Of a stretch of DNA of 64,000 bases, positions 7,152 through 43,881 are shown in pieces. Both the position numbers and the translations under genes were made by a program. The stretch covers positions 92-64,091 of the forward strand of contig JAMOUT010000075.1 in assembly GCA_027061995.1 (NCBI GenBank), written 5' to 3'. This DNA comes from Candidatus Aminicenantes bacterium. GTDB lineage: Bacteria > Acidobacteriota > Aminicenantia > JAMOAD01. Every line of letters begins with the position of its first letter. Position 1 is the stretch's first letter. The notes beneath the pieces were generated by a model. The model made no database searches and had not been told where the DNA came from. It saw only the letters and a list, made by a program, of their open reading frames with translations.

Positions 7152-8018
7152 TCAATTAATTTTGTTCAGATATTCCCCGTATTCATTATTAATCTCTTTT
7201 GCGAGTCTCAAAAGTTGCTTTTTATCTATATACCCCATTTTATATGCTATCTCTTCAATACAGGCGATTTTAAACCCTTGTCTCTCCTCTATGGTCTTAA
7301 TGAAAATCGATGCATCTATCAAGGATTCATAAGTTCCCGTATCAAGCCATGCATATCCTCTTCCGAGAAGCTCCACTTTTAATTTTCCTTTTTTAAGAAA
7401 TTCCTGATTTACGGCGGTTATTTCAAGCTCTCCCCTTTTTGATGGTTTTATTTTTTTCGCTATATCAATAACACTATTATCATATATATATAAACCTGTT
7501 ACCGCATAATTGCTTTCGGGATTTTGCGGTTTTTCCTCAATACTTGTAACATTGCCGTTTTTATCAAATTTAACAACTCCGTATCTTTCGGGGTCCTTTA
7601 CAAAATATCCGAAAACCACCCCGCCACCATTTTTCTCAACATGTTTTATTCCCGCGGTTAATATATCGGGAAGTCCGTGCCCGTAAAAAATATTATCTCC
7701 GAGAATCATTGCAATGCTATCGGAGCCAATGAACTGTTCCCCAATTATAAATGCCTGAGCAAGCCCCTCGGGTTTCGGTTGCACCTGATAAGATATCTTT
7801 AATCCTATCTGTGAACCATCATTAAGAAGTTCTTTAAATTTGGGTGTATCTTCCGGTGTCGATATTATAAGTATCTCTTTAATCCCCGAAAGCATCAATA
7901 CTGAAAGAGGGTAATAAATCATGGGTTTATTATAAACCGGAAGAAGTTGTTTACTTACGACCTTTGTTATAGGGTTAAGCCTTGAACCTGTTCCTCCGGC
8001 TAAAATTATCCCTTTCAC
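7152..8018 (-). CDS. rmlA: Glucose-1-phosphate thymidylyltransferase
   Basis: [38 protein letters not shown] is a near-canonical RmlA/RfbA N-terminus. The size is 288 aa. Confidence 0.9.
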
Positions 8019-8033
8019 TTTTTCTCCCTAAAT

Positions 8034-8768
8034 TTATAAATCCTTATAAAATCTTTTTTTAACATATTCAAACACAATATCAGCGGATTCTTCTATTGTA
8101 AGTTTTTCAGTATCAAGCAGGATTTCAGGATTTGCAGGTTCATCATAATCATCGGAAACTCCCGTAAAATTTTTTCTTTTTCCTTCAAGAGCCTCTTTGT
8201 AAACCCCTTTATCATCTCTTTTAATACATGTTTCAACGGAAGCTTTAACGAAAATTTCAATGAAATTCTTTGTCATCTCTTTAACACAATCTCGCGTCTC
8301 CTTATAGGGAGACACGAATGAAGCAACGACAGAGATTGAATTTTTTTGAAGAATCTTTATAAGAATTCCCACCCTTTTAAGATGAAGTTTTCTGCTTTCT
8401 CTGTCAAACCCGATTTCAGGAAGAAGATCTCTTATATCTTTACTATCTATTCTTTCAATGGGGATATACTCCCATTTTTTCAGTTTTTCATATACTTTAT
8501 CAGCTATTACGGTTTTCCCTGATTTGGGGAGCCCCGTAAACCATAGAACAAATGGTTCAATTTTTTTCTTTCCTATTTTGACTTTATTCCACAATCTTTC
8601 ATGAAGAAAATAAACCATTATTTTAATAACAAGTTCGATAAGTCCGGCAGCTATCGCCAGATCAAGTCTTCCGAAAAAAACAAAAATAATAATTGTTGTC
8701 GTTAAAGTGGCAAAAAATCTCCATGAAATCGCTTTTAAAAGTGATCTGAGTTTTGTTTCAATATACAT
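8034..8768 (-). CDS. cysC: Adenylylsulfate (APS) kinase with N-terminal ~70-aa two-helix membrane segment (DUF2061-like)
   Basis: A P-loop (GLPKSGKT) and the APS-kinase motif SFVSPYKETRD are present. The N-terminus MYIETKLRSLLKAISWRFFATLTTTIIIFVF... is hydrophobic. Confidence 0.75.
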   Translation of the reverse strand: MYIETKLRSLLKAISWRFFATLTTTIIIFVFFGRLDLAIAAGLIELVIKIMVYFLHERLWNKVKIGKKKIEPFVLWFTGLPKSGKTVIADKVYEKLKKWEYIPIERIDSKDIRDLLPEIGFDRESRKLHLKRVGILIKILQKNSISVVASFVSPYKETRDCVKEMTKNFIEIFVKASVETCIKRDDKGVYKEALEGKRKNFTGVSDDYDEPANPEILLDTEKLTIEESADIVFEYVKKRFYKDL

Positions 8769-8870
8769 TTATGAATTATAAATCAATGAATGAGCTTTGT
8801 AAAGATAGCCATATAAACTTCTTAATATGTATAGTAAAACAGTATTTAAATATTTTCTTTATACAAATAT

Positions 8871-10562
8871 TTAAAACTTCCTGAATTTTAAGATAGTAGC
8901 CACATATTGATTTTTATAAATCAGTTGCTTTTTAATTTTAAAATATCTTCCTTTCTTACTCTCTTTAAATAACATCCTCTTTAGTGCGACTTCTCCTGGC
9001 CTATCAATCGGATTCATATATCCGTCAAAAATTATATACTTAATTTTATATTTAATTATTTTTTTTAAAAAGAAATTCACAAGTTTATTATAATTATCAT
9101 AAATACTTTTCGTTTTAGGGATAAAATATATAATATTAACCTTTTTATTGAGATAATATCTGACGGTTGTTAAAGTGGAAAAGACGGCAATTCGGTCACC
9201 GGGTTTGATATGATTATTGTTAAGCCATTTTGCAATAACATAAGCCCCCCTATTAGGTGATAATAGATTGTATTTATACGCTTTTTTATAAGAGATTAAA
9301 TATATGTTCATAAAAAAAACAAAAAACAATATAAAAAAAATAGCTTTTTCGAAGATATGGATTCTATAATCTTTTATAAACAGATAAATGATAGGTGCGA
9401 TAAAAACAATGGAGATTAAGATAATGCTCGGAACAATAATTAATTTTACGAAACAGATATATAATACAAACAGATACAATATTATTCTTAAATAAAAAAA
9501 CGATTTTCCTTTTAACTTTTCTTTTAAGACTTTCAAACCATAAAACAATCCTACAAAACTTACGAAATAAAAGAGATAAATAAAAGATAAAAATCTTCGT
9601 ATATGGTGACTCGAAGATAAGGAAAATCTGTGAACCGTAAAAATATACCCTTTTGCAATAAAAAAGATACATTCATATAGTAAAACGGAAATGGCAAATC
9701 TTTTGTTTTTTTTATACAGATAATAAAAACCTACGGCAAATAAAATAATTAAAATAAACAGAAAACCCCAATGGATAAAAAGGGGTAATTTAGCAGGTAT
9801 AAAAAATAGAATAGCTGAATATATAATTGAAAAAAGTTGAAGCGGATTTTTAATAAAATAAAGGTATGATTTGGAATCAAAAATATATTGAATTTTTGAG
9901 ATTAATCTTGGGACTAATTTTATATAGAAAACCAGAAGTCCACCCGATATTATTAGAATAAACATAAGATATTTAACCCATATTTTTTTCTTAATCCTGA
10001 TGAAATTTACTATGTAACTAAAAAACAACAATATCCCCTCAAATCTTGTAAACACTCCCAATAAACTTGAGACAAACGAGGCGACATTTTTTTCTGTAAG
10101 AAAAAAATAAAATGATAATACAACAAAAAAAAGATAAAGAGAATCTGTCGTAGGGAACACAAAAAACTGTAAAAAAGGACTACTTAAAATAAAAATAACT
10201 CCAATAGAATAAAAATTCTCGGTGGTTTCTTTAAAAAGTTTGTATGAGAAAAATACAATCCCTACACTTGATAAAAAAGATATTAATTTTGCCCCGATAA
10301 TAAACCCATCATAATTAGAAAAGAGTAGATTAATAAAAGAACCAAGTATCCATAAAAATACGGGGAACAGAGGAGGAATAAATTTAAGTTTTAAATTGCC
10401 TGCAAATAATTTTTCAGCAGCAAAACAATATTTATAAAAATCGGGAGGAGCGAGATTTGTTATTTTAAAAAGTAATATTCCATTTAAAAAAGAGAACATT
10501 ATCAAGAAAAAAAGCGGGTTTTTTATAAGATTCAGTATCCTTTTTCTTATCTTTCCCATCAT
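8871..10562 (-). CDS. Polytopic membrane protein, GT-C-like (ArnT/PMT/oligosaccharyltransferase-like) with C-terminal soluble domain
   Basis: There are >10 predicted TM helices followed by a ~130-aa hydrophilic C-terminus. It sits in the glycan locus. The fold assignment is by architecture only. Confidence 0.4.
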   Translation of the reverse strand: MMGKIRKRILNLIKNPLFFLIMFSFLNGILLFKITNLAPPDFYKYCFAAEKLFAGNLKLKFIPPLFPVFLWILGSFINLLFSNYDGFIIGAKLISFLSSVGIVFFSYKLFKETTENFYSIGVIFILSSPFLQFFVFPTTDSLYLFFVVLSFYFFLTEKNVASFVSSLLGVFTRFEGILLFFSYIVNFIRIKKKIWVKYLMFILIISGGLLVFYIKLVPRLISKIQYIFDSKSYLYFIKNPLQLFSIIYSAILFFIPAKLPLFIHWGFLFILIILFAVGFYYLYKKNKRFAISVLLYECIFFIAKGYIFTVHRFSLSSSHHIRRFLSFIYLFYFVSFVGLFYGLKVLKEKLKGKSFFYLRIILYLFVLYICFVKLIIVPSIILISIVFIAPIIYLFIKDYRIHIFEKAIFFILFFVFFMNIYLISYKKAYKYNLLSPNRGAYVIAKWLNNNHIKPGDRIAVFSTLTTVRYYLNKKVNIIYFIPKTKSIYDNYNKLVNFFLKKIIKYKIKYIIFDGYMNPIDRPGEVALKRMLFKESKKGRYFKIKKQLIYKNQYVATILKFRKF

Positions 10563-10593
10563 TTTATATTATAAATTATATAAAATTTTTCAT

Positions 10594-11748
10594 CTATTTA
10601 TTTTCTTTCCCACCTTCAAGCAAAAAGGATAATAATGAAAAAAATAAAATTGAGAAAAAGAAAGCAGAAAAAATAATCAGTTTTTTATTTGTTTTTACCG
10701 GCCGGGCAGAAATAGTCAGGGGAGGATTAAATCTTATATCTTCATTATATACTTTTTTAAATTTTTCCACAGCCACGGATAGATCATTGTAAACTTTCTT
10801 TCCGATATCCCCTTTTAAATCAAGTTTTTTTAAAAAAAAGTCAAATTCTTTTAAAAATGTTCTATAAACATGAACAACCGTTTTCTTGTCTATTATCTTT
10901 TGTTTTAGCTCCCGAAAAAAAATAATTTTTATCTGTTCAATATCTTTATTCCTTTTATAAAAAGCCAAACTTTGTTTTAAATCGGCAATCTGAGACTCAA
11001 TCCCAACTATCTGATTTACGGGGGAAAGATACCTGTATCCCCCGTTATCCGTTGATACTAACTGAAAAGAATTCATTTTCCTTGAGTCAGGGTATTTTTT
11101 TAATATCATTAAGATATCCCCTTTCTTTTTCTCCAATAAATTTATATTAAATTTAGCATGAAATGTCTTATCATTATATTTTACGATCAAATCTTTGGAA
11201 CGATAATAATTAGAAGAAATATAATCATAAATCTTCTTATCAACAATGGATTCTCGAATAAAAGATCCAAGTAATTTGACAATTTCACCTGTTTTTTCAG
11301 GATTTTTGCATCTGTGTGAGATTTTTACCCCTATTATAAAATTTACTGTTTCATCCTTTATTTTACCAAAATTCTTTATATCTTCTTTTGTATATGCATA
11401 AATAGGCTTTATTGCTTTGCTCGGATTCACCTTTTTCATTCCGTCTATAATAAGACGGAGTTTATTTTTATCTTTCACATTATTGGATAAGAACCGATAA
11501 AAATTATCACGATCAGTGAATATCAAAGAATAATCCTTATAATCAATTAATGAAATTTTTTTACCTTTAGTTGAGAATCTCAAAATACCGTTGCATTTGT
11601 AATATTTAGGTAACATAAAAACAATAACAACGGACAAGAAAGTAATAATAAAAACACCCGATAAAATAAACAACTTTCTTTTCCATAAAATTCTAAACAA
11701 GTCAAATAAATCAATCTCATCATTAATATTTGTTTTTTCATTATTCAT
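10594..11748 (-). CDS. Wzz-like polysaccharide chain-length determinant / co-polymerase
   Basis: The N-terminus IDLFDLFRILWKRKLFILSGVFIITFL...PKYY matches the Wzz motif. A second TM lies at the extreme C-terminus. Confidence 0.55.
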   Translation of the reverse strand: MNNEKTNINDEIDLFDLFRILWKRKLFILSGVFIITFLSVVIVFMLPKYYKCNGILRFSTKGKKISLIDYKDYSLIFTDRDNFYRFLSNNVKDKNKLRLIIDGMKKVNPSKAIKPIYAYTKEDIKNFGKIKDETVNFIIGVKISHRCKNPEKTGEIVKLLGSFIRESIVDKKIYDYISSNYYRSKDLIVKYNDKTFHAKFNINLLEKKKGDILMILKKYPDSRKMNSFQLVSTDNGGYRYLSPVNQIVGIESQIADLKQSLAFYKRNKDIEQIKIIFFRELKQKIIDKKTVVHVYRTFLKEFDFFLKKLDLKGDIGKKVYNDLSVAVEKFKKVYNEDIRFNPPLTISARPVKTNKKLIIFSAFFFSILFFSLLSFLLEGGKENK

Positions 11749-11773
11749 AATCTTCCTCCGTATTTTAATAGGG

Positions 11774-12835
11774 TTAAAATTTTACATAATCTTTATAAGT
11801 CAATTTTATACCGGTTTCCAATGAGGTTTTTGCTTTCCAACCCAAATTATTTATCTTGGAAACATCAAGGAGTTTTCTCGGTGTTCCATCCGGTTTTGAG
11901 CTATCCCAATCAAGCTTTCCGTCAAACTCTACGATAGTTTTTACAATTTCGGCGAGTTTTTTTATTGTAATATCTTCCCCTGTTCCTATATTAATAAGCT
12001 CTCCTATATCATTATAATCGTATTTTTTCATAAGAAAAACAACTGCTTCCGCCAAATCATCAACAAATAAAAATTCCCTCTTCGGGGAACCGGTTCCCCA
12101 TAATTTAACAAAAACTTGCCCGTCATCTCCTTTTAAAATCCCGAATTTTTCAAGAAATTTCTTAATCTCCCCATCATTACCGGATAAAGGGAATTCTTTC
12201 ATCGGTCTCTTTTTAAAATCTTCTCTTATCTCCGAGAATTTGTCTTCGGATAATAATTTTGCAAGATGGAATTTCCTTATTAAGGCAGGCAAAACATGGG
12301 AGTTAAACAAATCATAATTATCGTTCCGACCATATAAGTTAGTGGGTTGAACAGCAAGATAATCCGTTCCATACTGCTCATTATAGTATCTGCACATCTT
12401 AATCCCCGCTATTTTTGCAAGAGCATAAGCTTCGTTTGTAGGTTCGAGAGGAGAGGTTAAAAGGGACTCCTCTTTCATAGGTTGAGGTGCAAGTCTCGGA
12501 TATATGCAAGAGCTTCCGAGAAAAAGAAGTTTTCGGACTCCGAACTTATATGCGGAATGAATTATATTTACCTGAATCAGAAGATTATTATAGATAAATT
12601 CGGCGGGATATGTTTTGTTTGACATAATCCCTCCCACTTTCGCAGCAGCAAGAAAAACATAATCGGGTTTTTCTTTTTCAAAAAAATCCTCAACGACTTT
12701 TTGTCTTTCCAAATCAAGTTCTGTATGGGTTTTAAGAATCAGGTTTTTGTAACCTTTTTTATTTAACTCTCTGACAATAGCTGAACCTACAAGCCCCTTA
12801 TGTCCTGCCACATAGATTTTATCCTCTTTTTTCAT
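11774..12835 (-). CDS. fcl: GDP-L-fucose synthase (GDP-4-keto-6-deoxymannose 3,5-epimerase/4-reductase)
   Basis: [19 protein letters not shown]...[32 protein letters not shown]...[31 protein letters not shown] is a close match to Fcl/GMER. Confidence 0.8.
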
Positions 12836-12856
12836 TTATACCTCCTCGGAAATTTT

Positions 12857-14140
12857 CTATAAAAAATATCCCTCTAACTCTTTTCCCACATCATGTATAA
12901 AAGGATGTCCTTCAAGAGCAAATCCATATGAATCAAGAAGAAGAGCGTTATCCTGTGAATGCATCCCTTCAAAAATAGATTCGGAATATTTTTCTTTTTT
13001 GGTAATTCCCGCTTTTAAATCAAACCCGTAGTTTGACAAAAGAACAATGTCGGGAGCTTTATCAAAGTATTTACCTTTGTAAATCTCCTCTTTGAAAAAA
13101 ACCTCTTTTATCACTTGCTTATTTTCTATTTCCAAACTTAAAAATCTCTTTTTTATCTCTTCTCTTATTTTATCATAATTTTTTTTCTTCACTTTTCCTT
13201 TTCCGTATTTACCTTCAAGATGTATGTATATTCTTGAAGGATCAAGAGCAAAAACAGTGGAATTTTCATCTATGCTCTTAAGATTTTTCGGATTTTCATC
13301 ATTAAATTTCAGATACCCCCACTCCTTGAGATATTGAGAAAGGTAAACCTCATATTTTAAAGAGGTGAAACCATGATCGGATAAGATTATAAAGGGAATC
13401 CCTTTTTTATCCATCTCATCGGTAATTTCACCTATTATTTCATCAACTTTTTTATAATACCCTATAAAATCATTATGGTTCGGATGGTTCAAATCATCTT
13501 TTGCCTTAAATAAAAAATGGTGAAGTCTGTCTGTTCCCGTTATGATAAAATAAAAAAGATTCCATTTTTCTTTTATCAGTTTTTTATACAATAAATATCT
13601 TTTATCAAGTGTCTCGTGAAGTTCTTTCATAAAATATTTTTTATCCTTTTTCCCCAAAGCTGTGTCAACATCAACCTTATAATCAATCTCTTTAAGATAT
13701 GATAAAAAATTCTTAGGATATACCGCGTTTTCCAAATCAAGAGCAACAAAACCGGAGATAAGATAACCGTTAATTTTTCTGACAGGATAAGTATTGGGAA
13801 GGTTTATTACAATGGATTTTTTTCCTTTTTTTTCTATCTTTTCCCACATTGTTTTAACAGGTAAAAGGGGAAAAGTGGGAAATCTATAACCGTAATTTTT
13901 ATTATTTATCTCCATGAATCCGTATATACCGTGTTCACCCGGATTCATTCCTGTCATAAAAGATGTCCATGAAACAGAGGAAATTTCGGGAACAGGAACC
14001 TGTGTTTTAATAAATTTGTATTTTTCAATCAATCTTTTAAAATTCGGCATTATCCCTTTTTCCGCAAATTCCTTAACAAGTTCAAAAGGAACACCGTCAA
14101 TCCCTATAATCATAAATTTTCTTGTTTTTTTAAAAAGCAT
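12857..14140 (-). CDS. Alkaline-phosphatase-superfamily enzyme (type I phosphodiesterase / nucleotide pyrophosphatase-like)
   Basis: MIIGIDGVPFEL...PVPEISSVSWTSFMTGMNPGEHGI is the PF01663-like metal-site region. The start is chosen at the internal Met preceded by GAGGGAA. The ORF track extends to 14167, so an alternative start at 14110 is possible. Confidence 0.5.
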   Translation of the reverse strand: MLFKKTRKFMIIGIDGVPFELVKEFAEKGIMPNFKRLIEKYKFIKTQVPVPEISSVSWTSFMTGMNPGEHGIYGFMEINNKNYGYRFPTFPLLPVKTMWEKIEKKGKKSIVINLPNTYPVRKINGYLISGFVALDLENAVYPKNFLSYLKEIDYKVDVDTALGKKDKKYFMKELHETLDKRYLLYKKLIKEKWNLFYFIITGTDRLHHFLFKAKDDLNHPNHNDFIGYYKKVDEIIGEITDEMDKKGIPFIILSDHGFTSLKYEVYLSQYLKEWGYLKFNDENPKNLKSIDENSTVFALDPSRIYIHLEGKYGKGKVKKKNYDKIREEIKKRFLSLEIENKQVIKEVFFKEEIYKGKYFDKAPDIVLLSNYGFDLKAGITKKEKYSESIFEGMHSQDNALLLDSYGFALEGHPFIHDVGKELEGYFL

Positions 14141-15745: not shown

Positions 15746-16079
15746 TATTTATTATTTTTATCGCATCATCTATAAGATTTGCGAGTTGCTTTTTTGATGA
15801 TGCTCCTATAATCTCTTTAATTTTCTTTCTCCCTTTAACAATCATGTAAGAGGGAACTCCCTGTATATCATAATCTCTTGCAATTTTTTTATTGATATCA
15901 ACATTCACTTTTACAAACTCAACTTTATCTTTATACATCTCAATTATATTGTTTAACAGAGGCTCCATCATTCTGCAAGGGGGACACCATACAGCCCAAA
16001 AATCAATAAAAACAGGCTTTGAACAATTTAATACTTTATCATAAAATTCCTTTTCATCGATAGTTTTAAGATCCCACAT
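15732..16079 (-). CDS. trxA: Thioredoxin
   Basis: The WCPPC active site (FWAVWCPPCRMMEP) is present. The size is 115 aa. Confidence 0.85.
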   Translation of the reverse strand: MWDLKTIDEKEFYDKVLNCSKPVFIDFWAVWCPPCRMMEPLLNNIIEMYKDKVEFVKVNVDINKKIARDYDIQGVPSYMIVKGRKKIKEIIGASSKKQLANLIDDAIKIINNGNK

Positions 16080-16095
16080 CTTATATATCCTTAAA

Positions 16096-20224: not shown

Positions 20225-20239
20225 TTCTAATTTGTCTCC

Positions 20240-23909: not shown

Positions 23910-25801
23910 AATAAAGAAATTTCCTCCGCCCATTTTAAAAACACATAAATAGTCCAAAGCTCAACACTAAAATTCTCTTTTTTATTGGAAAGGATGTTTT
24001 TAAGTTCCTTTTCGTTAAAAAAAATACTGGTTTTTTGGGGAAAGTTATTTAGATAGTGCACAATTTCATCTCGGACAAAGTTTTTCACCCATTTTTTTAA
24101 AGGAATACCAAATCCTTTCTTAGGTAAAGAAAATAATTCCTCTGGAATCTTATCTTTAAATGTTTCTTTTAATATCCACTTTGAAATGTTTCCCTTTAAT
24201 TTATATTCGGTAGGTATTTTCAAAGCAAATTCCACTATTCTATGGTCAAGGATAGGGACCCTAACTTCCAATGAATTTAACATACTCATCCTATCTACTT
24301 TTGTAAGTATGTCATTGACCATATAATTTTTTAAATCATGACACATATTCCATTGAGGAAGAGAAAACTCTTTCGTTAGATTTAGTTGCCCTGTGAAAAT
24401 AGAGGGGGAATAATTCTCTTCTATTTCTCTTTTAAATCCTTTACTATACAGAGATTTCTTTATTATTTTAGTCACCTGAAACATATGAGATATTATTTGC
24501 TCATCTCCCCTGGACGATAAAATTTCACAAAACTTGTATAATCTTCTTTTCTTTTTCGTAAAGTGAGAAACAAATTTCATAGTAGGACATAAAATTATCT
24601 TTTCTGATAAAAACCTTAAAGCATAAGGAATTTTTAAGTATTTTTCAAAATACTTTGAAAACATGTAAGGCCTTACATAACCCCCGAAATTTTCGTCTCC
24701 TCCGTCTCCGGAAAGCGAAACAGTAACTTTTTCTCGGGCATATTTTGAGACAAGATATGTAGGAATCATAGAATGGTCTGCAAACGGCTCATCCATCTGG
24801 TAAATTAGTTCCGGTATTATATCCCTAAAATTATCAAAAGATAAAATTTCTTCCGTATGCTCCGTTCCATACTTTTCCGCGGTCAATCTAGCATACTCTC
24901 TTTCATCTTTCTCCCCCTCAAAACCAATTGTAAAAGTTTTTACTGGTTTTGACGAAAGCTCAGCCATAGTGGCAACAACTATTGTTGAATCTATCCCACC
25001 GGAAAGAAAAGCACCCAGCGGCACATCGGAAATCATCCTTTTTTTTACCGAATCTTTCATCAATCCTCTCAAGATTTCTTTAATTTCGTTTATGTCTGTA
25101 ATTTTATCCCTACATGAACAATCTATCTCCCAGTATTTTATTTTTTTTATCGCCCCTGTTTTTAAATCATACCTAAGGTAATGGCCAGGTTCAAGTTTAT
25201 AGGAGTTTTTAAAAACTGTTGAGGGGTAAGGAATATATCCTAGAGAAAAGTAATCATTCAAACTTACAAAATCAATCTCTTTATCAAAATTTTGTAACTT
25301 GAAGAGGGCTTTAAGCTCAGAGGAAAAAGCCAATTGGCCCCCTTTATAAAAATAGAAAACAGGCTTTATACCTATTCTGTCTCTTATAAGGTATAGGATT
25401 CTATTTTTTAAATCAAGCAATCCAATAGCAAACATCCCATTAAGTTTGTTTACAAAATCAATTCCCCATTCTCTGTAAGCTTTCAGAATAACTTCGGTAT
25501 CCGATTTGGTTTTAAAAGAATATCCACCCTTTATAAGCTTTTCCCTAATCTCAAGGAAATTATATATTTCTCCATTAAAAACAATTACAAGATCATCTTC
25601 ATCTGACATAGGTTGATTTGCAGTGTCTGACAAATCAATAATGCTCAATCGCCTGTGTCCCAAACCTACCCATTTACCAGATGCTTGCGCTACAAAACTA
25701 CCTTCAGCATCCGGTCCTCGGTGTTTTATCTCTCCCGCCATTACAAGAAGCTCTTTTTTTTCTATCTTGTTAATGGAAATAACCCCACAAATCCCGCACA
25801 T
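23906..25801 (-). CDS. asnB: Asparagine synthase (glutamine-hydrolysing) homologue, probable sugar amidotransferase
   Basis: MCGICG is the N-terminal nucleophile. The SGGIDS PP-loop motif is present. The size is 631 aa. Confidence 0.85.
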   Translation of the reverse strand: MCGICGVISINKIEKKELLVMAGEIKHRGPDAEGSFVAQASGKWVGLGHRRLSIIDLSDTANQPMSDEDDLVIVFNGEIYNFLEIREKLIKGGYSFKTKSDTEVILKAYREWGIDFVNKLNGMFAIGLLDLKNRILYLIRDRIGIKPVFYFYKGGQLAFSSELKALFKLQNFDKEIDFVSLNDYFSLGYIPYPSTVFKNSYKLEPGHYLRYDLKTGAIKKIKYWEIDCSCRDKITDINEIKEILRGLMKDSVKKRMISDVPLGAFLSGGIDSTIVVATMAELSSKPVKTFTIGFEGEKDEREYARLTAEKYGTEHTEEILSFDNFRDIIPELIYQMDEPFADHSMIPTYLVSKYAREKVTVSLSGDGGDENFGGYVRPYMFSKYFEKYLKIPYALRFLSEKIILCPTMKFVSHFTKKKRRLYKFCEILSSRGDEQIISHMFQVTKIIKKSLYSKGFKREIEENYSPSIFTGQLNLTKEFSLPQWNMCHDLKNYMVNDILTKVDRMSMLNSLEVRVPILDHRIVEFALKIPTEYKLKGNISKWILKETFKDKIPEELFSLPKKGFGIPLKKWVKNFVRDEIVHYLNNFPQKTSIFFNEKELKNILSNKKENFSVELWTIYVFLKWAEEISLL

Positions 25802-25820
25802 TTTTTCTCCTTATTAAGTC

Positions 25821-26717
25821 TTAAATACCCTCAATAAATTCTTCAATTTCAGCACCTTTATTTAACCTATCCCTTAAAATAAGCTTGTTATTATTTTTTT
25901 GAAATACAGAAAGATTTTCTTTCTCTCTATTCTCTGTTATGAATAGGAGTCCGTCATCCTTTAATATGAGTTTTAGATTATTAACAATGTTTATAATCTC
26001 TTTTTTCTTCAAATAAACAAGGTTTAAAACATTTGCCACCTTAATAATATCAAGCTGCTCATGATTCCATGGTTCGGAGGTATCCCACTGTTCAATCCGT
26101 ATTTTGTCACTTTCTTCGACAAGTTTAAGAATCCTCCGATCCAAAAGCACAACATCCCTCCCGCTGTCTATATATCTTTTTTGATATTTCTTCCCTTTCA
26201 TCCTAAAATATCTTTTAGCAAGAAAAAAAACAGGAAAAAAACTTTTTTTATCAAGTAGAAAAGTCCAATGTTTATTGGCAACAATAAAGGATTTTCCCTT
26301 GGTATCATAAAAAAAGAAAGAGTTCTTTACTTTTACTATCTTCACATTAAATAAATAATCAGTTAAGTAAAAAGTTAAAAGATGTTTACGAAGCCTATAA
26401 AAAAGATATAATGATGAGACTCCCGTTGAAGCACCGACTTCCAATAAATTCACTTTTTTGGATTTAATTGTTTTTAGAATCAATTCATCTGTAAGTAAGT
26501 TTCTTTTATATAGAGTTGTTTTCCATGTTTTTTTATAGTAAATATGAGAAACTAATTCATTAAATTCTTCATTATCCAATTCCTCGGAATAAAATAATTT
26601 GTAAAGTGGAGGAATCTTAGGAAAAATATTTTTGAAAAGAAGATTGTTCCCATTATTATTATAATATATTAACGAATTTTTTATAAGAAAGTTTTTCAAG
26701 TTTTTCATTATATTCAT
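25821..26717 (-). CDS. Hypothetical protein, possible divergent SAM-dependent methyltransferase
   Basis: LEVGASTGVSS resembles MTase motif I. The rest is not recognised. Confidence 0.3.
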   Translation of the reverse strand: MNIMKNLKNFLIKNSLIYYNNNGNNLLFKNIFPKIPPLYKLFYSEELDNEEFNELVSHIYYKKTWKTTLYKRNLLTDELILKTIKSKKVNLLEVGASTGVSSLYLFYRLRKHLLTFYLTDYLFNVKIVKVKNSFFFYDTKGKSFIVANKHWTFLLDKKSFFPVFFLAKRYFRMKGKKYQKRYIDSGRDVVLLDRRILKLVEESDKIRIEQWDTSEPWNHEQLDIIKVANVLNLVYLKKKEIINIVNNLKLILKDDGLLFITENREKENLSVFQKNNNKLILRDRLNKGAEIEEFIEGI

Positions 26718-27472
26718 TTTTTTCTACCAATCACAACAAAATACGACCCTATTTTTAATGAATCAACAATCTTAAAAGGAAGTAACCATTTCATGGTTCT
26801 GTTCCCTAACCAATTATAATATCTATAAATTTTTTTTAAAAGTTTTCTTTTTCTAAAATTATAACCCAAGGAGATTAGTCCTATTTCCCTTAATTCCAAA
26901 ACTTCCAAATTGTTTTTTTCATAAACCTTTTTCAAATCTTTCTTATCAATAATAATATGTTTGTTAAATACCTCCTCGTCCAAAACTTTCTGAATTTTCC
27001 CCTGAATTCCCGTTAACTTAGGAACTCCGGTTATCAAAAGCCCGTCTTTTTTCAAAAAGGAAGAAAAAACCTTTATTATCTCATTATAATCCTCAAAATG
27101 TTCTATTACTCCAAAAGATGAGACTATATCAAATTTCTCTGAAAAATTCTCACCAAGTTTTGTAAAATCATTTTTCACAATATTAGCCTTTATATTTTCA
27201 AATCTTAGCCTATCCTTTATCAATTTTATGCCAGCATCAGAATAATCAACTCCCCATACTTCATAGCCATAGAACTTTTTAAAATATATAATCCATCTCG
27301 AATCTCCGCATCCGAGTTCAAGATACGAAAGATGACTTCCTTGTTTCAAAATTTCCTTAAAAATTTCAATTAGATGTTTCTCAATAATTCCATATCCACT
27401 CTTTTGCACAATTCTTGGCTTCCTCTTTTTTCCATAGTAGCTTTCCCAAAAAGTTTTATCGGTAAGTTTCAT
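26714..27472 (-). CDS. Class I SAM-dependent methyltransferase
   Basis: Motif I YLELGCGDSRW is present. The acidic motif VWGVDYSD follows with typical spacing. Confidence 0.7.
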   Translation of the reverse strand: MKLTDKTFWESYYGKKRKPRIVQKSGYGIIEKHLIEIFKEILKQGSHLSYLELGCGDSRWIIYFKKFYGYEVWGVDYSDAGIKLIKDRLRFENIKANIVKNDFTKLGENFSEKFDIVSSFGVIEHFEDYNEIIKVFSSFLKKDGLLITGVPKLTGIQGKIQKVLDEEVFNKHIIIDKKDLKKVYEKNNLEVLELREIGLISLGYNFRKRKLLKKIYRYYNWLGNRTMKWLLPFKIVDSLKIGSYFVVIGRKK

Positions 27473-27474
27473 TG

Positions 27475-28350
27475 TTAGTATTCCACTTTTTCCAATGAAA
27501 ACTCATCGGAAATCAGGGAAAAAGACCCCCCTATTATAGATGTTTTTGAAAAACATTTCCTATATAAAGCATAAAAAAGAATCATAATTTTAAAAGGAAT
27601 ACAAGAAAACAAATAATAGAGAAACAAACTTTTCACATCGAACCATTTGCCATATCTTTCTTTCTCCTCTCTATTAGAAAAACTGGTGTTCTTCCTATAA
27701 CTTACATCTAAAAAACATTCTTTAAATTCAATACCGGCAAATTCAAAGATTTTTATCAAAAGCTCAATATTTTTATTTTTAATGTCGGAATATTTGATAA
27801 AAAATACAGGAAATTTCCGAATTATTTTTTTCCTTGCTTTTTTTGATAAAATATAAAGAAGAACCTCTCTTGTCAAAGAACCCTTTATTCCTATTTTCTT
27901 TTGAAAATTAATCGCTGATTTAACATTATCAAGAAAAGCTCTTTCTATAATTATAAAGTTAGCATCAGGAAATTTTTTTTTGAGCTTAAAAAAATTTAAT
28001 ATGTGAGCTTTTTGTAACCACGCTTTTCCCCCTTCTTTTCTTGTGAAAGCATCCATGACAAACTCAAATACGGTGAGATAATCCTTAAAACGATTTTCAT
28101 ACAAAAGCTTCTTCTCAAGCCCTGTCAACCTGAAAAAATCACCCGAAGTAAAAGTTTCAACAAAAGCAATATAGTTATCAATCCTATTCAAAGTACCAAA
28201 AATCGATGGGAAAACTTCAAAAAGATTTGTTTCTACTATACCTCTGTGATATTCACTCTGTATGCCTTTAACTTTATCAGAGTTAAGAATAATATTCGAC
28301 AACCATTTTGTTCCCGAACGGTCTTTTCCTAATACAAAAATCCTTTTCAT
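27475..28350 (-). CDS. Sulfotransferase (PAPS-dependent)
   Basis: The N-terminal 5'-PSB-like loop VLGKDRSGTKWL matches sulfotransferase GxxRSGTT. The size is ~290 aa. APS kinase is encoded in the same locus. Confidence 0.55.
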   Translation of the reverse strand: MKRIFVLGKDRSGTKWLSNIILNSDKVKGIQSEYHRGIVETNLFEVFPSIFGTLNRIDNYIAFVETFTSGDFFRLTGLEKKLLYENRFKDYLTVFEFVMDAFTRKEGGKAWLQKAHILNFFKLKKKFPDANFIIIERAFLDNVKSAINFQKKIGIKGSLTREVLLYILSKKARKKIIRKFPVFFIKYSDIKNKNIELLIKIFEFAGIEFKECFLDVSYRKNTSFSNREEKERYGKWFDVKSLFLYYLFSCIPFKIMILFYALYRKCFSKTSIIGGSFSLISDEFSLEKVEY

Positions 28351-28352
28351 CT

Positions 28353-29858
28353 TTAACTACCTCCGAATATTCTACCTTTTATTGCATGAAACACAAATTG
28401 ATCCTCTTTTGGTAATTTAAATATGATTAAAAACAAAAAATACAAAGCAAGTTCTATGAAAATAGCGGTAACCAAAAAAAAGAAAGGAGCTTTTAGCAAA
28501 TAAATAAAATTTTTAAAAATAACAATAAATGCCAATGGAAAAATTAAGGACAATATTGGTTTTAAGTATTCTCTATCTAAAGGAAATATCCCAACAACAC
28601 TCTTGATATAAAACATCTTAATAAAATTAAAACCAATCAAACTAACCCCTGTGGATATACAAGCCCCAACTATTCCGTACTTGGGAATAAGTAAATAATT
28701 CAAAACTATATTGATTAAAACCATTGGTACCGAAAATAATAATTCTTTTTCTCTTTTCCCCAACATAATAAGCACATTTCCGACAGAGCCGGAAAATGAT
28801 AAAATTAACCAAATAATTGAAAAAATTATCAAGATAACCATACCTTGTCTATATTCCTTCTTAAAAACGCCCAAGATAATATCACTGTTTACGATAAAAA
28901 ACACGGAAAAAGGAAGAGTTAAGGTAAAAATCCATCTTGATACGATTTTGAACAACTTGTCTGCTTCTACGAATTCCTTTTTTACAAACAAGGAAGACAG
29001 AACAGGCGAGAAAATAGAATTAAATGAAAACCAAAATAAAAACAGTAAATAGCTAATTCTATAAACAAAAGAATAGATCCCCACTGATTTTGAAGTTTTA
29101 AAATAACCGAGCATAATAATATCTGTTTTATTTAAAATCATCACTGTAAAATACAAAAGAAGTATTGGAAAAGAGAACTTCAGTAACTCTTTTCCATCCC
29201 CTTTAACTTTTTTTAAGAAGACTTTAATGTTTAGCCTATAATTTAAAAGATAGAAACCGATGAAAACTGAAATCAAAGTAGAAAAAAGAAAAGCATAAAC
29301 AGCTGAATATAATCCAAACCCCAAATAATAAAGAAAAAGAAAAAGACCTAATGAAGATATTGGCTGAAGAATATCCTTTAAAAAAGCTGAATATTTCAAT
29401 TCCTTAAAACCTCTGAAAAAGGAGACTATCATGATTAACATTGCTTGAAAGACTAATACCAAGGAAAACAACCTTAGCAAACCAACCAAATCTTTATTCT
29501 TAAAAATATAGATGGAGACCTCTCTTGATGAAAAAAACATTAGCATCGCAAAAATTAAACTTAAGAAAAAAACAAAGAAGATCGAGAATCTTATTACCCA
29601 TTCTGTTTTTTCCAAATCCTTTTTCTCCATATATTCAGATATATATTTCACCGCTGTCATATTAAGACCGAAAATAGATAATACCGTTAAAACATTAACA
29701 ATGCTTAGCCCGAGACTATAGAGCCCGTATGATGCAGCTCCCAACAAATTTGCAATTAACAAATGATACAATGTCCTAAAAAAAGTTCCACCGAGCTGTC
29801 CTCCAAAACTTATCCCAGCATTCTTAACAATTAATTTAAGATTATCTTTCATATACAA
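28353..29858 (-). CDS. wzx: Wzx-type oligosaccharide flippase (MOP/PST family)
   Basis: It is 501 aa with ~12-14 TM helices. The N-terminal region is typical of the polysaccharide biosynthesis protein family. Confidence 0.7.
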   Translation of the reverse strand: MYMKDNLKLIVKNAGISFGGQLGGTFFRTLYHLLIANLLGAASYGLYSLGLSIVNVLTVLSIFGLNMTAVKYISEYMEKKDLEKTEWVIRFSIFFVFFLSLIFAMLMFFSSREVSIYIFKNKDLVGLLRLFSLVLVFQAMLIMIVSFFRGFKELKYSAFLKDILQPISSLGLFLFLYYLGFGLYSAVYAFLFSTLISVFIGFYLLNYRLNIKVFLKKVKGDGKELLKFSFPILLLYFTVMILNKTDIIMLGYFKTSKSVGIYSFVYRISYLLFLFWFSFNSIFSPVLSSLFVKKEFVEADKLFKIVSRWIFTLTLPFSVFFIVNSDIILGVFKKEYRQGMVILIIFSIIWLILSFSGSVGNVLIMLGKREKELLFSVPMVLINIVLNYLLIPKYGIVGACISTGVSLIGFNFIKMFYIKSVVGIFPLDREYLKPILSLIFPLAFIVIFKNFIYLLKAPFFFLVTAIFIELALYFLFLIIFKLPKEDQFVFHAIKGRIFGGS

Positions 29859-29861
29859 ATG

Positions 29862-31355
29862 TTATTCAACATAGCCTAATGATTTTATTTTCCGAATCTC
29901 TTTTTCCGAGGCTTTTTTCACGGTTGTTTTCCTTTTGATTTTCTTAAGCAGTTTGAATAAAATCCCTTTATATTTTCTTCTCAGAGATGTTCCCCTTAGT
30001 AAACTGTGAATCTCGTAAGGGTCATCAATTATGTTAAAGAATTCTTCAACACCGGTAGTCTTATAAATGTAATGATATCTTTTATCAATTATAGAATATT
30101 TATCACCTTTTTCATAAACAACATAATCCGGTATTTTTTTTAGCTGTTTTCTTGTTTTAAATACTTCCCTTTGTGCGAAGGAAAATGATTTATTGTATTT
30201 CTTGCCTGAGTTATAAATAAAGTGAATCAATGATTTCCCACTTAAAGTATCTTTTTCTTTATTATTCAGACTTAGAAGATCAATAATCGTAGGTAAAATA
30301 TCCGGATGTTCAACTACTTCGGTTATTTTCTTACCCATCTCTTTGTTGTTAAAATAGAAAATCAAAGGAATATGGATATGCTCCTTATATATATGTTTTG
30401 CATGAGTAAACCAATTATGATTGCCTAAACCTTCACCATGATCTCCGGTTATAATCCATAATGAATGTTTATTTAATCCTTTTTTTTCAAAATAAAAAAA
30501 AATTTCTCTTAAAACAGAATCCATATACATTATCTCTGCATCATAAAGATTAATCTGTTCATACATTATATCAATAGCACTCATTCCTTCATGTTTTAAA
30601 TCTCCCATCTCCTTAAAATATCTATTTTTCTCTCTATGTTTAAAAACTTCACCTTTGTAAACAAGGGGATTAATTCTATGTTCTTTTTCCCAAAAGTTTA
30701 TCATTTTCCTCTTATCTGTCAGGTTTTTAATCTTAGATAAAAAAATATTTGGAGGATAATAAGGTCTATGGGGATCAAACAGGTGAATCCAAATAAAGTG
30801 CTTATCTTTATTCTCTTTTTTTTTAAAACTTGAAAAATATTCCTTTATTTTCCGAAAAGTCAGTTTTGCATCTCTGTATTTTTTACCATATTTCTTTTTA
30901 ATCCTCGGGTCAATAGGTTCATTGTAAAAATCAAACCCTTGATATAAATTACATGCTCCAAACAAACCAACACTTGTAAAAGCATAAGTTTTAAACCCCT
31001 TTTCTTTTAAAATCTCAGCTATTGTTTGAAATCTCTCATCTAATTTAAACCAATTTTTCAAAACCCCGTGAATGCGAGGATAAAGCCCTGTGAAAATTGA
31101 TGAGTGAGCAGGGGCAGTCGAAGCAATGTTGGAGTAAGCATTATTAAAAATAATTCCTTCTTTAGCAAGATTATCAATGAATGGTGTTATTTTTCTTGGA
31201 TAACCATAGCAGCTTAAATGATCGGCTCTCAGAGTATCAATGGTTATTAAGAAGATATGATCTACCCTTATTTTCCCCCGTTTTTTTAACAAATAATAAG
31301 AAACAGATAACAATATTAATAATAGAGTGAAAAATAATAGTGTCTTTTTGTTCAT
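29862..31355 (-). CDS. Sulfatase-family (alkaline phosphatase superfamily) hydrolase/transferase, probably a phospho-substituent transferase rather than a true sulfatase
   Basis: A signal/TM segment is followed by ITIDTLRADHLSCYGYPR (the sulfatase metal site). The CxPxR formylglycine motif is absent (STAPAHSS instead). Confidence 0.55.
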   Translation of the reverse strand: MNKKTLLFFTLLLILLSVSYYLLKKRGKIRVDHIFLITIDTLRADHLSCYGYPRKITPFIDNLAKEGIIFNNAYSNIASTAPAHSSIFTGLYPRIHGVLKNWFKLDERFQTIAEILKEKGFKTYAFTSVGLFGACNLYQGFDFYNEPIDPRIKKKYGKKYRDAKLTFRKIKEYFSSFKKKENKDKHFIWIHLFDPHRPYYPPNIFLSKIKNLTDKRKMINFWEKEHRINPLVYKGEVFKHREKNRYFKEMGDLKHEGMSAIDIMYEQINLYDAEIMYMDSVLREIFFYFEKKGLNKHSLWIITGDHGEGLGNHNWFTHAKHIYKEHIHIPLIFYFNNKEMGKKITEVVEHPDILPTIIDLLSLNNKEKDTLSGKSLIHFIYNSGKKYNKSFSFAQREVFKTRKQLKKIPDYVVYEKGDKYSIIDKRYHYIYKTTGVEEFFNIIDDPYEIHSLLRGTSLRRKYKGILFKLLKKIKRKTTVKKASEKEIRKIKSLGYVE

Positions 31356-31398
31356 TTAAAATAGTCCTTCTTTGTCATAAACAGGTAATTTCTTGCCA

Positions 31399-32430
31399 TT
31401 AATTATTTTCTTTAAAAACATAATATTCTAAATACCATTCTACAAATTTTTTAATCCCTTCCTCAACTGATATAGAAGGTTTATAATTAAAATCTTTTAT
31501 TAGCTCCGATACATCTGCAAATGTCTTTGAAACATCCCCCGGCTGCATCGGTAAAAAATTCTTTTTTGCCTCTTTTCCCGTTATTTTTTCAATAGCTTTT
31601 ATGAAATCCATTAAACCCACGGGGCTACTGTTTCCGATATTATAGATTTTATAAATCTCTTTTTGTTTTTCTCCGTATCGGATTATCTTAAAAACCCCTT
31701 CGATTATATCATCTATATATGTAAAATCTCTTTCCATCTTGCCGTAATTATAGACATCAATTGGTTTATTCTCAGAAATCGCTTTGACAAATTTGAAAAG
31801 TGCCATGTCGGGTCTTCCCCATGGCCCGTAAACAGTAAAGAATCTTAATCCGGTTGTTTTTAAATCGAAGAGGTGACTGTAAGTATGCGCAAAAAGCTCG
31901 TCAGCTTTTTTTGTAGCTGCATAAAGTGATATGGGCTTATCAACATTATCGGTTTCCTTAAAAGGGATTTCTTTGTTTAAACCGTAAACCGACGAAGAGC
32001 TTGCATAAACAAGATGTTTAATATTATTTTTTTTACCGGCTTCAAGAATATTCATAAAACCCAAAATATTGCTGTTTATATATGAGTATGGATGAGTTAT
32101 GCTGTATCTGACCCCTGCCTGAGCCGCAAGATTGCAAACCATATCGAATTTTTCATTTTCAAAAAGGGAATCTACCTTTTCCTTATCTTCAAGATTAAGT
32201 TTAATAAATCTATAATTCTTGTATTTTGAGGATTTTATCAATTTGTCATATTCTATATTCTTCCTCTCTATACCACTCTCTTTCAATCTGCCGTATTTAA
32301 GCTCCACATCATAATAATCATTTATATTATCAAGACCAACTATCTCATAATTTTCAAGGGAAAGTCTTTTTACAAGATGAAAACCAATAAATCCTGCTGT
32401 TCCGGTGATTAAAATCTTATTTTTACTCAT
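31399..32430 (-). CDS. NAD-dependent epimerase, UDP-glucuronate 4-epimerase-like (CapI/Gla family)
   Basis: KILITGTAGFIGFHLVKRL...VGLDNINDYYDVELKYGRL is the characteristic N-terminus of the UDP-GlcA/GalA epimerase subgroup. Confidence 0.7.
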   Translation of the reverse strand: MSKNKILITGTAGFIGFHLVKRLSLENYEIVGLDNINDYYDVELKYGRLKESGIERKNIEYDKLIKSSKYKNYRFIKLNLEDKEKVDSLFENEKFDMVCNLAAQAGVRYSITHPYSYINSNILGFMNILEAGKKNNIKHLVYASSSSVYGLNKEIPFKETDNVDKPISLYAATKKADELFAHTYSHLFDLKTTGLRFFTVYGPWGRPDMALFKFVKAISENKPIDVYNYGKMERDFTYIDDIIEGVFKIIRYGEKQKEIYKIYNIGNSSPVGLMDFIKAIEKITGKEAKKNFLPMQPGDVSKTFADVSELIKDFNYKPSISVEEGIKKFVEWYLEYYVFKENN

Positions 32431-43869: not shown

Positions 43870-43881
43870 TTTAAATAACCC

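Follow-up and report, generated by a model that had tools for sequence, protein, structure and literature searches.

A long SQD1-like synthase with a five-cysteine domain and its conserved gene cassette in a Wzx/Wzy-type surface-glycan locus of an uncultured bacterium

The window analyzed here (the whole stretch of 64,000 nucleotides, positions 92 to 64,091 of contig JAMOUT010000075.1 from a Candidatus Aminicenantes bacterium) contains at positions 7152 to 32430 a single surface-glycan locus of the Wzx/Wzy type, about 25 kb in length, of an uncultured sediment bacterium. In the list of open reading frames (ORFs), the 22 ORFs of this locus are tightly packed and have the same (minus-strand) orientation, and neighbors overlap or are separated by short gaps (Table 1). 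Five genes in its middle encode, from position 17562 down to 12857, a long SQD1-like synthase, a thioredoxin, a short family 2 glycosyltransferase (GT2), a GalE-type epimerase, and a soluble enzyme of the alkaline phosphatase superfamily (PF01663), and they are the main subject of this report. Gene families were assigned with Pfam and NCBIfam profiles at curated cut-offs, the window proteins were mapped on 83 related loci, and the neighboring ORFs of those loci were also clustered without prior assumptions.

The SQD1-like synthase and its cassette

The nearest relatives of the synthase gene were found in three Candidatus Aminicenantes metagenome-assembled genomes (MAGs), with 91 to 92% identity and a matching local gene order, and the order of the five cassette genes was identical in Aminicenantes MAGs. 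Among the related loci, a thioredoxin gene was situated directly downstream of the synthase gene in 77 of the 78 loci that could be tested; its products mostly carried a WCPPC or WCxPC motif. The PF01663 gene was present at a distance of at most 3 kb from the synthase gene in 44 of 49 testable loci and lay directly upstream of it on the same strand in 38 of these 49. A short GT2 gene followed the thioredoxin gene in 33 of 83 loci, and a gene for a GalE-type short-chain dehydrogenase/reductase (SDR) was found in 40 of 83. CysD was encoded beside the cassette in 14 loci and CysN in 12 (of 83), and a kinase for adenosine 5'-phosphosulfate (APS) in 5 loci. No CysH-type reductase was found in the 83 neighborhoods; the matches to the PAPS_reduct family were all CysD, and a search of these ORFs for the ECGLH motif gave none. 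CysD aside, the cassette neighbors in a random sample were richest in Pfam families of GT4 glycosyltransferases, methyltransferases, Wzx-type flippases, and sulfotransferases. In one related locus (L003, 7686-9467), a PF03601 (YeiH-type) membrane protein was encoded approximately 550 bp upstream of the synthase, with a 98-amino-acid (aa) ORF between them; PF03601 carries the NCBI name "putative sulfate exporter."

A first-pass annotation of the window had counted three independent sulfur functions, i.e., APS kinase, sulfoquinovose synthase, and sulfotransferase. This count did not stand: the SQD1-like protein, the thioredoxin (which had been named correctly and scored above the TIGR01068 cut-off), the PF01663 enzyme, the short GT2, and the epimerase form one conserved cassette. 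The same annotation had pointed to an sqdX gene as the sign of sulfolipid synthesis instead. No GT4 family was conserved next to the synthase gene in the 83 loci, nor was an SqdX-, SqdD-, or SQD2-type partner, and the window GT4 proteins matched models of the exopolysaccharide type only. One of them, GT4c, had approximately 36 relatives in a collection of 5.8 billion proteins, none of them named SqdX.

The synthase matched profile NF041015 over positions 1 to 383 of 384 (E, 1.8e-129) and aligned over its full length with the Arabidopsis SQD1 structures (best E, 1.6e-80; 1qrr, 1.9e-80; 274 bits). Matches to GalE-type epimerases were far weaker (E, 1e-4 to 1e-6; 23 bits for UDP-glucose 4-epimerase in the PDB), and 150 of the 150 best representatives were SQD1-like. 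Profile and PDB comparison thus decided in favor of SQD1; a grouping with ordinary epimerases, which the first-pass annotation had named as refuting its call, was not obtained. The protein shares with SQD1, SqdB, and Agl3 the extended SDR fold with a GxxGxxG NAD-binding loop (ILGIDGYLGW) and the TMGEYG and S-x-Y-H-x-S-K motifs (here KLGTMGEYG and SFYHVSK). The fingerprint of UDP-sulfoquinovose synthases, [ST]MG...Yx3K (PMC8987622), is present, and T145, M146, E148, Y149, S180, Y182, H183, and K186 are retained.

Unlike those enzymes, the synthase has an insertion of 8 to 9 residues between the Thr and Tyr motifs, a five-Cys N-terminal domain of 76 residues, and obligatory thioredoxin and alkaline-phosphatase-family neighbors. 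All five cysteines of the domain were invariant in 83 of 83 related loci, as were the motifs TCWNCP, VDF, CGQ, and C-x-RR; the last motif, CP-x-W, was nearly so (Pro in 77 and Trp in 82 of 83). That the N-terminal extension is an artefact of a wrongly called start was ruled out, because its amino acid sequence is conserved in 83 of 83 loci. The protein is a true member of the SQD1 superfamily but not an orthologue of Agl3 or SqdB: it belongs to a separate clade, carries an extra Cys-rich domain, and lacks an Arg that is essential in Agl3.

This long form was discrete. In a library of 1.8 billion representatives it formed one cluster at 50% identity, at 747 bits, and the next representatives scored at most 340 bits; the alignments of all those listed started no earlier than query residue 74, and most of them started at 77. 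The long form was monophyletic on a long stem in the neighbor-joining tree, with approximately 65 to 97% internal identity across Bacteria and Archaea and only approximately 45% identity to short-form or canonical SqdB/SQD1. The best 120 matches in the 5.8-billion-protein collection were 66 to 97% identical over the full length, and 199 of the 488 columns were at least 95% conserved across the 83 bacterial and archaeal loci. In data with one genome per species, 181 synthase loci were found. The best 80 of these 181, all of them in MAGs, came from bacteria (Aminicenantes, Chloroflexota, Omnitrophota, Planctomycetota, Saccharibacteria, Armatimonadota, and Spirochaetota) and archaea (Thermoplasmata, Theionarchaea, Hel- and Borrarchaea, Woesearchaeota, Altiarchaeales, and Bathyarchaeia), and the synthases of these phyla were 64 to 73% identical to the window protein. 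Related loci spanned more than 15 bacterial and archaeal phyla, and since the same cassette is common in archaea, it is not a specifically bacterial feature. Members of the clade carry the JGI label "UDP-sulfoquinovose synthase," so the family call itself is not new.

Many other SQD1-like proteins, of 700 to 1160 aa (P0122, P0128, P0136, P0137, P0139, P0143, P0224, and others), matched the query in two or three separated stretches, which suggests large insertions in their catalytic domains, possibly inteins.

Partner enzymes of the synthase

The PF01663 enzyme had no transmembrane (TM) helices. Its family has the complete metal and nucleophile set of the nucleotide pyrophosphatase/phosphodiesterase (NPP) type, with invariant D24, S63, D213, H217, D264, H265, and H403. 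A single-sequence search of the PDB gave no match, and a search with a profile gave only remote matches to PhnA and ENPP1 (E, 1e-6), with which the enzyme shares the Asp/Ser/Asp-His/Asp-His/His arrangement. Unlike NPP and PhnA, it is cytoplasmic, very distant from the solved members, and encoded beside ATP sulfurylase, APS kinase, or SQD1-like synthase. In a reverse profile search of metagenome contigs with this family, 80 independent loci were obtained, 11 of which contained the synthase gene; the expectation that the family would be exclusive to the synthase thus failed in 69 of 80. In these 69 loci the PF01663 gene was often present in two to four tandem copies, and its neighbors included genes for CysD-like proteins (17 loci), APS kinase (10), CysN (6), and Sat (6), as well as ADP-forming acyl-CoA-synthetase-like proteins (10) and a two-CxxC oxidoreductase (9). 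The synthase-linked PF01663 proteins formed a clade beside those linked to CysDN. The Sat, CysD, CysN, and APS kinase neighbors tie the family to sulfate activation and not to phosphoglycerol or phosphoethanolamine decoration, the role first proposed for this enzyme. EptA, MCR, LtaS, and OpgB combine a multihelix N-terminal membrane domain with an extracytoplasmic AlkP-type domain and a Thr nucleophile; the PF01663 protein is without TM helices and has Ser as its nucleophile.

A recurrent metagenomic cluster without a link to the synthase (L093, L094, L105, L116, L119, L129, L133, and L137) consisted, in this order, of genes for the two-CxxC oxidoreductase (233 aa), the ADP-forming acyl-CoA-synthetase-like protein (715 aa), three PF01663 paralogues in tandem, and a 179-aa membrane protein.

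The short GT2, which has no TM segment, was most similar among NCBIfam models to AglJ (6e-23), PpgS (4e-22), Dol-P-hexose transferase, and ArnC, all far below the equivalog cut-offs, and in the PDB to the Pyrococcus Dol-P-Man synthase (5mlz; 1.3e-10), followed by ArnC. All of these enzymes load a sugar on polyprenyl phosphate. The epimerase-like SDR matched UDP-glucose 4-epimerase best in the PDB (4zrm; 3.7e-59) and then WbgU and WbpP; with UDP-hexose 4-epimerases as its best relatives, it is a candidate for an epimerase step.

A second possible component of a delivery system is the 563-aa polytopic membrane protein, whose ORF was absent from the component list of the first-pass annotation. 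It had no Pfam or PDB match by sequence, profile search included, and its family had 10 members in the 5.8 billion proteins. According to an AlphaFold (AF2) model (predicted local distance difference test [pLDDT], 79.7; predicted TM-score, 0.75), the protein has a GT-C fold: the top 13 Foldseek matches were exclusively GT-C enzymes (STT3, ArnT, ALG9, and AftA; E, 2e-6 to 1e-4), the top 12 with a probability of 1.0 and a TM-score of approximately 0.4, and AftA with values of 0.80 and 0.3, respectively. GT-C enzymes have a conserved acidic residue in the first external loop. Here D41 in APPDFYKY, after the first TM helix, was invariant in the six closest relatives, all of which are encoded beside the cassette, and in the wider family its conservation was 90% or higher. 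The resemblance of the GT2 to polyprenyl-phosphate sugar synthases, together with the presence of the putative GT-C-fold protein, makes it more likely that a sulfosugar is added outside the membrane than within the repeat unit.

The same pairing of a small GT2 with a polytopic GT-C-fold protein in one locus is known from ArnC/ArnT (4-amino-4-deoxy-L-arabinose on lipid A), GtrA/GtrB/GtrV (glucosylation of O antigen), and PpgS/Rv3779 (mycobacterial galactosamine). The window differs from these systems in that the GT2 has no TM segment and scores below the equivalog cut-offs, and in that the GT-C-fold protein belongs to its family of 10 without a Pfam model. Moreover, no GtrA-type flippase was identified, and the donor would be a sulfonated sugar.

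The surrounding glycan locus and its flanks

With an initiating phosphoglycosyl transferase, Wzx, Wzy, and Wzz, the Wzx/Wzy core set is complete (Table 1). Both the Wzx/Wzy type of the locus (TIGR03025 and TIGR04370 above cut-off, PF01943, and PF02706) and the standard components that had been listed for it (rmlA, fcl, two epimerases, a WbaP-like transferase, three GT4 and one GT2 glycosyltransferases, and Wzz/Wzy/Wzx) were recovered with the Pfam and NCBIfam profiles.

Table 1. Features of the glycan locus and of the region just upstream of it
Feature	Position	Strand	Length (aa)	Basis
RmlA, glucose-1-phosphate thymidylyltransferase	7152-8018	-	288	TIGR01207, 465 bits, above cut-off 360.65
APS kinase fused to N-terminal DUF2061 membrane domain	8034-8768	-	244	PF01583 E 3e-41; DUF2061 E 2.6e-17
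Polytopic membrane protein with predicted GT-C fold	8871-10562	-	563	~12-13 TM helices and C-terminal soluble domain
Wzz-type chain-length determinant	10594-11748	-	384	PF02706 E 1.9e-9, above gathering score; TM helix at each end
GDP-L-fucose synthase (Fcl)-like SDR	11774-12835	-	353	NF047922 E 6e-139, 463 bits, below cut-off 500
Soluble alkaline-phosphatase-superfamily enzyme	12857-14167	-	436	PF01663
GalE-type NDP-hexose 4-epimerase-like SDR	14130-15113	-	327	SSSA and YxxxK motifs, no TDE dehydratase motif
Short soluble GT2 like polyprenyl-phosphate sugar synthases	15110-15745	-	211	NCBIfam and PDB comparison
Thioredoxin	15732-16079	-	115	WCPPC; TIGR01068 above cut-off
Long SQD1-like nucleotide-sugar sulfonate synthase	16096-17562	-	488	SDR catalytic body, residues 77-488
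N-terminal Cys-rich domain of the synthase	17335-17562	-	76	C10, C13, C27, C43, C62
Polyprenyl-phosphate hexose-1-phosphate transferase, WbaP/WcaJ type	17655-19013	-	452	PF02397 E 3e-65; TIGR03025 333 bits, above cut-off
Three GT4 glycosyltransferases	19010-22543	-	404, 392, 374	GT4a WcaI-like; GT4c stp2/BshA-like
Wzy-type repeat-unit polymerase	22533-23957	-	474	TIGR04370 55.7 bits, above cut-off 40; polytopic by hydropathy
AsnB-type glutamine amidotransferase	23906-25801	-	631	PF00733 E 1e-92; TIGR01536 above cut-off
Possible methyltransferase, weak call	25821-26717	-	298	CheR SAM-binding E 4.5e-5, 23.4 bits, below cut-off 27
S-adenosylmethionine (SAM)-dependent methyltransferase	26714-27472	-	252	PF13489 E 5.8e-19; PF08241 E 3.9e-14
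PAPS-type sulfotransferase	27475-28350	-	291	PF13469 E 5.5e-10, 40.3 bits, above gathering score 27
Wzx-type flippase	28353-29858	-	501	PF01943 E 1.3e-27, PF13440, MatE
Membrane-anchored PF00884 "sulfatase-family" protein	29862-31355	-	497	PF00884 E 1.6e-49; one N-terminal TM helix
NAD-dependent sugar epimerase/dehydratase-family protein, first gene	31399-32430	-	343	PF01370 E 1.8e-54
Best promoter-like site	32559-32531	-		TTGTCA-17-TATAAT with TG, 11/12 matches; consensus match only
Terminator-like hairpin of upstream gene	32634-32603	-		14-bp stem then T run; consensus match only

The first gene of the locus had its best NCBIfam matches in GalE, dTDP-glucose dehydratase, and TviC, all below cut-off. 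The profile match of the Fcl-like protein to NF047922 was split in two stretches by an internal insertion; homologues with 59 to 81% identity adjoin the cassette in six related loci (L002, L004, L005, L006, L015, and L028). The locus has an Fcl-like gene and a true RmlA; neither Gmd nor rmlBCD was found in it or elsewhere in the window. The Fcl-like protein could have a role in the sulfosugar pathway, and the synthase could use dTDP-glucose as its substrate.

The APS kinase, which would produce 3'-phosphoadenosine 5'-phosphosulfate (PAPS), scored 158 bits with TIGR00455 (cut-off, 138.7); its LDGDN motif reads IDSKD, and the cut-off is passed all the same. A promoter-like site is present before its gene at 8803-8775. 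The sulfotransferase has an N-terminal GKDRSGTKW, read from the sequence as a loop of the 5'-phosphosulfate-binding type. Both proteins had been annotated correctly (TIGR00455 and PF13469 above cut-offs), and together they are one O-sulfation route, not two functions. Likewise, the AsnB-type amidotransferase was confirmed by TIGR01536; its best match was the XrtA/PEP-CTERM amidotransferase model (553 bits, below cut-off). One of two annotated SAM methyltransferases was clear, and the other had only a subthreshold CheR match (Table 1) and no match among the NCBIfam profiles. The AsnB-type enzyme and the methyltransferase(s) presumably modify the glycan further.

Two sulfatase-like enzymes without the formylglycine motif had been described as probable phosphoglycerol- or phosphoethanolamine-type transferases. 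In the PF00884 protein the motif is indeed missing, as T-A-P-A-H (in T-A-P-A-H-SSIF-TG) replaces C/S-x-P-x-R. Its nearest PDB relatives were formylglycine sulfatases and phosphonate monoester hydrolases. This protein does not belong to the EptA/MCR/LtaS/OpgB type: it has a single TM anchor, whereas those proteins have a multihelix N-terminal membrane domain, and it reached at most 48 bits with EptA-type models, whose cut-offs are approximately 500.

The GC content was 27 to 36% across the locus and similar in the rest of the window. The flanking genes encode BipA, an Rnf operon, PgpA, CinA, and an M64 peptidase, by which the host is identified as a bacterium. The transcript of the locus probably starts at the best promoter-like site (Table 1). 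A tRNA scan and an Rfam scan of the window gave no matches, and an outer-membrane export or ligation component (Wza/OPX or WaaL) was not found among the 22 genes and the scanned flanking ORFs.

Directly upstream of the locus and on the same strand, at 32654-47317, seven of eight ORFs encode paralogous secreted proteins with signal peptides, near-identical N termini (...AFSYAQSITVTNPHSGSTW...), and Kre9_KNH, CARDB, and Ig-like domains; the eighth (42613-43869) had no Pfam match. These proteins could be surface or S-layer-like proteins and are possibly targets of glycosylation. Downstream of the locus, again on the same strand, a TMEM43-family membrane protein and a 241-aa secreted protein without a family match are encoded at 4948-6932.

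Proposed pathway, rival explanations, and meaning

In the pathway that we propose, two kinds of sulfur are attached to the glycan. By the ordinary route, the APS kinase would make PAPS and the sulfotransferase would place O-sulfate esters on the glycan. The synthase would oxidize a nucleoside diphosphate (NDP)-glucose at C4, eliminate water to give the 5,6-ene, and add sulfite at C6, as SQD1 and Agl3 do; judged by the family fingerprint, its product would be an NDP-6-sulfo-6-deoxyhexose. APS or PAPS would be processed by the PF01663 enzyme and the Cys-rich domain, so that sulfite would be delivered locally and not from a free pool, and the thioredoxin would supply two electrons, by analogy with CysH-type APS/PAPS reductases. 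In the latter, a catalytic Cys-S-sulfonate is reduced by thioredoxin, and the bacterial APS reductases have four cluster-binding cysteines and one catalytic cysteine. The likeness to CysH plus thioredoxin (activated sulfate and two thioredoxin electrons giving sulfite) would be one of function; unlike CysH, the five-Cys domain resembles PF01507 neither in sequence nor in fold. The epimerase may act on this nucleotide sulfosugar to give the C4 epimer, sulfofucose. The short GT2 would then load the sulfosugar on undecaprenyl phosphate, and after flipping, the GT-C-fold protein, acting outside the cytoplasmic membrane, would attach it to the polymer or a surface protein, in a manner resembling the ArnC/ArnT or GtrB/GtrV decoration systems. 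The predicted product of the locus is a heavily anionic surface polymer, both O-sulfated and C-sulfonated. The anionic glycan of the first-pass annotation is kept with its O-sulfation pair; its sulfoquinovose in the repeat unit is less likely, since the GT2 and the GT-C-fold protein point to addition outside the membrane.

We consider the core of this proposal, a sulfonated sugar added through a lipid-phosphate carrier, about evenly poised between right and wrong. The sulfite-relay step, for which the evidence is gene linkage, is more tentative and on balance doubtful. Somewhat unlikely, too, is the full claim that the cassette is a sulfonation machine new to the literature, in which the PF01663 enzyme, the five-Cys domain, and thioredoxin turn APS or PAPS into a C-S bond without CysH.

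Several results weigh against the proposed pathway. The synthase scored 432 bits with NF041015, below the NCBIfam equivalog cut-off of 575, and it has Pro in place of the Arg that is essential in Agl3, as do 91 of 105 superfamily representatives. The Cys-rich domain was modeled with a moderate pLDDT of 72 and had no relative in a structure comparison. Of the 49 loci that could be tested, 5 had no PF01663 gene near the cassette, and the close relatives L001, L002, and L006 were among these. No ATP sulfurylase (Sat or CysDN) was found in the locus or among the scanned window ORFs of at least 100 aa; its gene may lie elsewhere in the genome. At the delivery end, three distant relatives of the 563-aa protein (L165, L166, and L167; 30 to 33% identity) were not beside the cassette, and large polytopic proteins were not enriched near loci with the short GT2 (9 of 33 versus 10 of 50). 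In those three loci the relative was directly followed by a MOP/Wzx-like flippase gene, which points to a conserved pairing of transferase and flippase. The 80 genomic loci were without exception from MAGs, and the clade is known from sequence, linkage, and predicted structure. Finally, NPP-type active sites normally attack phosphorus, an attack that would release sulfate and not sulfite, and the PF01663 enzyme may remove only pyrophosphate (PPi), 3'-phosphoadenosine 5'-phosphate (PAP), or AMP.

This last point leads to an alternative that we hold to be quite possible, if somewhat unlikely, in which the sulfosugar is made with sulfite from a CysH located elsewhere, the Cys-rich domain serves as a structural module with Zn or Fe-S or as a redox switch that thioredoxin keeps reduced, and the PF01663 enzyme only drives sulfate activation forward or clears an inhibitory nucleotide (PPi, PAP, or AMP). 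The phosphorus chemistry of NPP-type sites is in its favor, as are the PF01663 genes that adjoin Sat and APS kinase genes without a synthase or thioredoxin gene, which would suit a general helper of sulfate activation, and the close relatives whose cassettes are without PF01663. The 83 neighborhoods, however, contained no CysH and had CysDN beside the cassette in 12 to 14 loci, and five invariant cysteines with a nearly obligatory, dedicated thioredoxin exceed what a housekeeping reductant would call for.

It is unlikely that the synthase is an ordinary UDP-sulfoquinovose synthase that uses free sulfite, with a cytoplasmic GT4 building sulfoquinovose into the repeat unit on undecaprenyl diphosphate for flipping by Wzx and polymerization by Wzy, and with the thioredoxin, the GT2, and the two alkaline-phosphatase-family enzymes as unrelated decoration or housekeeping functions. 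The complete Wzx/Wzy set with three GT4 genes directly upstream of the synthase gene and the conserved catalytic fingerprint speak for this explanation, and the extracytoplasmic PF00884 protein could decorate the polymer. Yet the adjacency of thioredoxin (77 of 78) and PF01663 (44 of 49) is not incidental, the GT4 genes are specific to the locus and do not travel with the synthase gene, the glycosyltransferase that accompanies it resembles the polyprenyl-phosphate type, and the PF01663 protein is soluble and from a family tied to sulfate activation.

A product other than a sulfonate is quite improbable. The reaction might stop at the 5,6-ene or 4-keto-6-deoxy stage, or another nucleophile might attack C6 (e.g., a protein persulfide or thiol, from which thioredoxin would later release a 6-thio sugar), chemistry to which a Cys-rich domain and a dedicated thioredoxin are suited; in line with the first of these options, Agl3 releases UDP-glucose-5,6-ene without sulfite (PMC4388408). 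Agl3 is inactivated by Ala substitutions of His95, Arg101, Met145, Tyr182, and Lys186 (PMC4388408), and where the synthase keeps the His, Met, Tyr, and Lys, it has, like the whole long clade, Pro at the position of the essential Arg101 (HYAENPSAPY), a second point in favor of a different product next to the score below the equivalog cut-off. Against this, all other residues needed in Agl3 are kept, and Pro is the majority state of the superfamily: it was present at SQD1 position 101 in 91 of 105 full-length SQD1-like representatives, and Arg, present in 11 of 105, was limited to a small clade with the studied enzymes, including SQD1. The residue essential in Agl3 is thus not a feature of the superfamily, and most "UDP-sulfoquinovose synthase" annotations rest on sequence types that have not been studied. 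CysDN beside the cassette in 12 to 14 loci and APS kinase in 5 also argue for sulfur derived from sulfate.

That the cassette makes a head group like that of sulfoquinovosyl diacylglycerol and not a glycan component can practically be dismissed: sulfolipid is the only established bacterial use of sulfoquinovose (PMC13436972) and the short GT2 would itself form a sulfosugar bound to a lipid, but the synthase has no conserved partner of the SqdX, SqdD, or SQD2 type, the cassette is common to bacteria and archaea, whose core lipids differ and whose polyprenyl-phosphate carriers are alike, and its neighbors are glycan-assembly genes.

In the searchable literature we found no account of the long clade, the Cys-rich domain, or the cassette of thioredoxin, PF01663 enzyme, GT2, and epimerase, nor of a link between PF01663 and sulfate activation or of the GT-C-fold partner. 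Nor did we find there a bacterial polysaccharide of any type with sulfoquinovose, in agreement with the first-pass annotation. Sulfoquinovose has been treated as a product of phototrophs, in sulfolipid, and of a few archaeal N-glycans. The precedent for a surface glycan with sulfoquinovose comes from Agl3 (PMC4388408), and reviews of sulfoquinovose cycling start from SqdB-SqdX (PMC13436972). The nearest known locus by general design, the cluster for sulfated capsular polysaccharide of Vibrio sp. KMM 8419 (PMC11641403), is likewise of the Wzx/Wzy type with a sulfotransferase for O-sulfation; unlike it, the window locus has the C-S cassette, a membrane-fused APS kinase, and an AsnB-type amidotransferase.

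The results correct the annotation of several window genes, and they bear on two gaps in sulfosugar biosynthesis. Which compound donates the sulfur to UDP-sulfoquinovose synthases in vivo has yet to be settled (PMC4388408), and here the long clade offers a concrete candidate in its fused Cys-rich domain, its dedicated thioredoxin, and a partner tied genomically to ATP sulfurylase. For sulfofucose no biosynthetic route is known (PMC12421959), and the 4-epimerase of the cassette is a candidate for the missing route. If the proposed pathway is true, cell-surface glycans in anoxic sediments would commonly contain sulfoquinovose or sulfofucose, in Aminicenantes, Chloroflexota, Planctomycetota, Omnitrophota, Thermoplasmata, Asgard, and DPANN among others, and would provide the sulfur cycle with a nonphotosynthetic source of sulfosugars. 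The cassette, nearly invariant in hundreds of bacteria and archaea that are uncultured and for the most part anaerobic, would then supply C-sulfonated sugars from a second source, independent of light, and such sugars would be a general feature of microbial cell surfaces.

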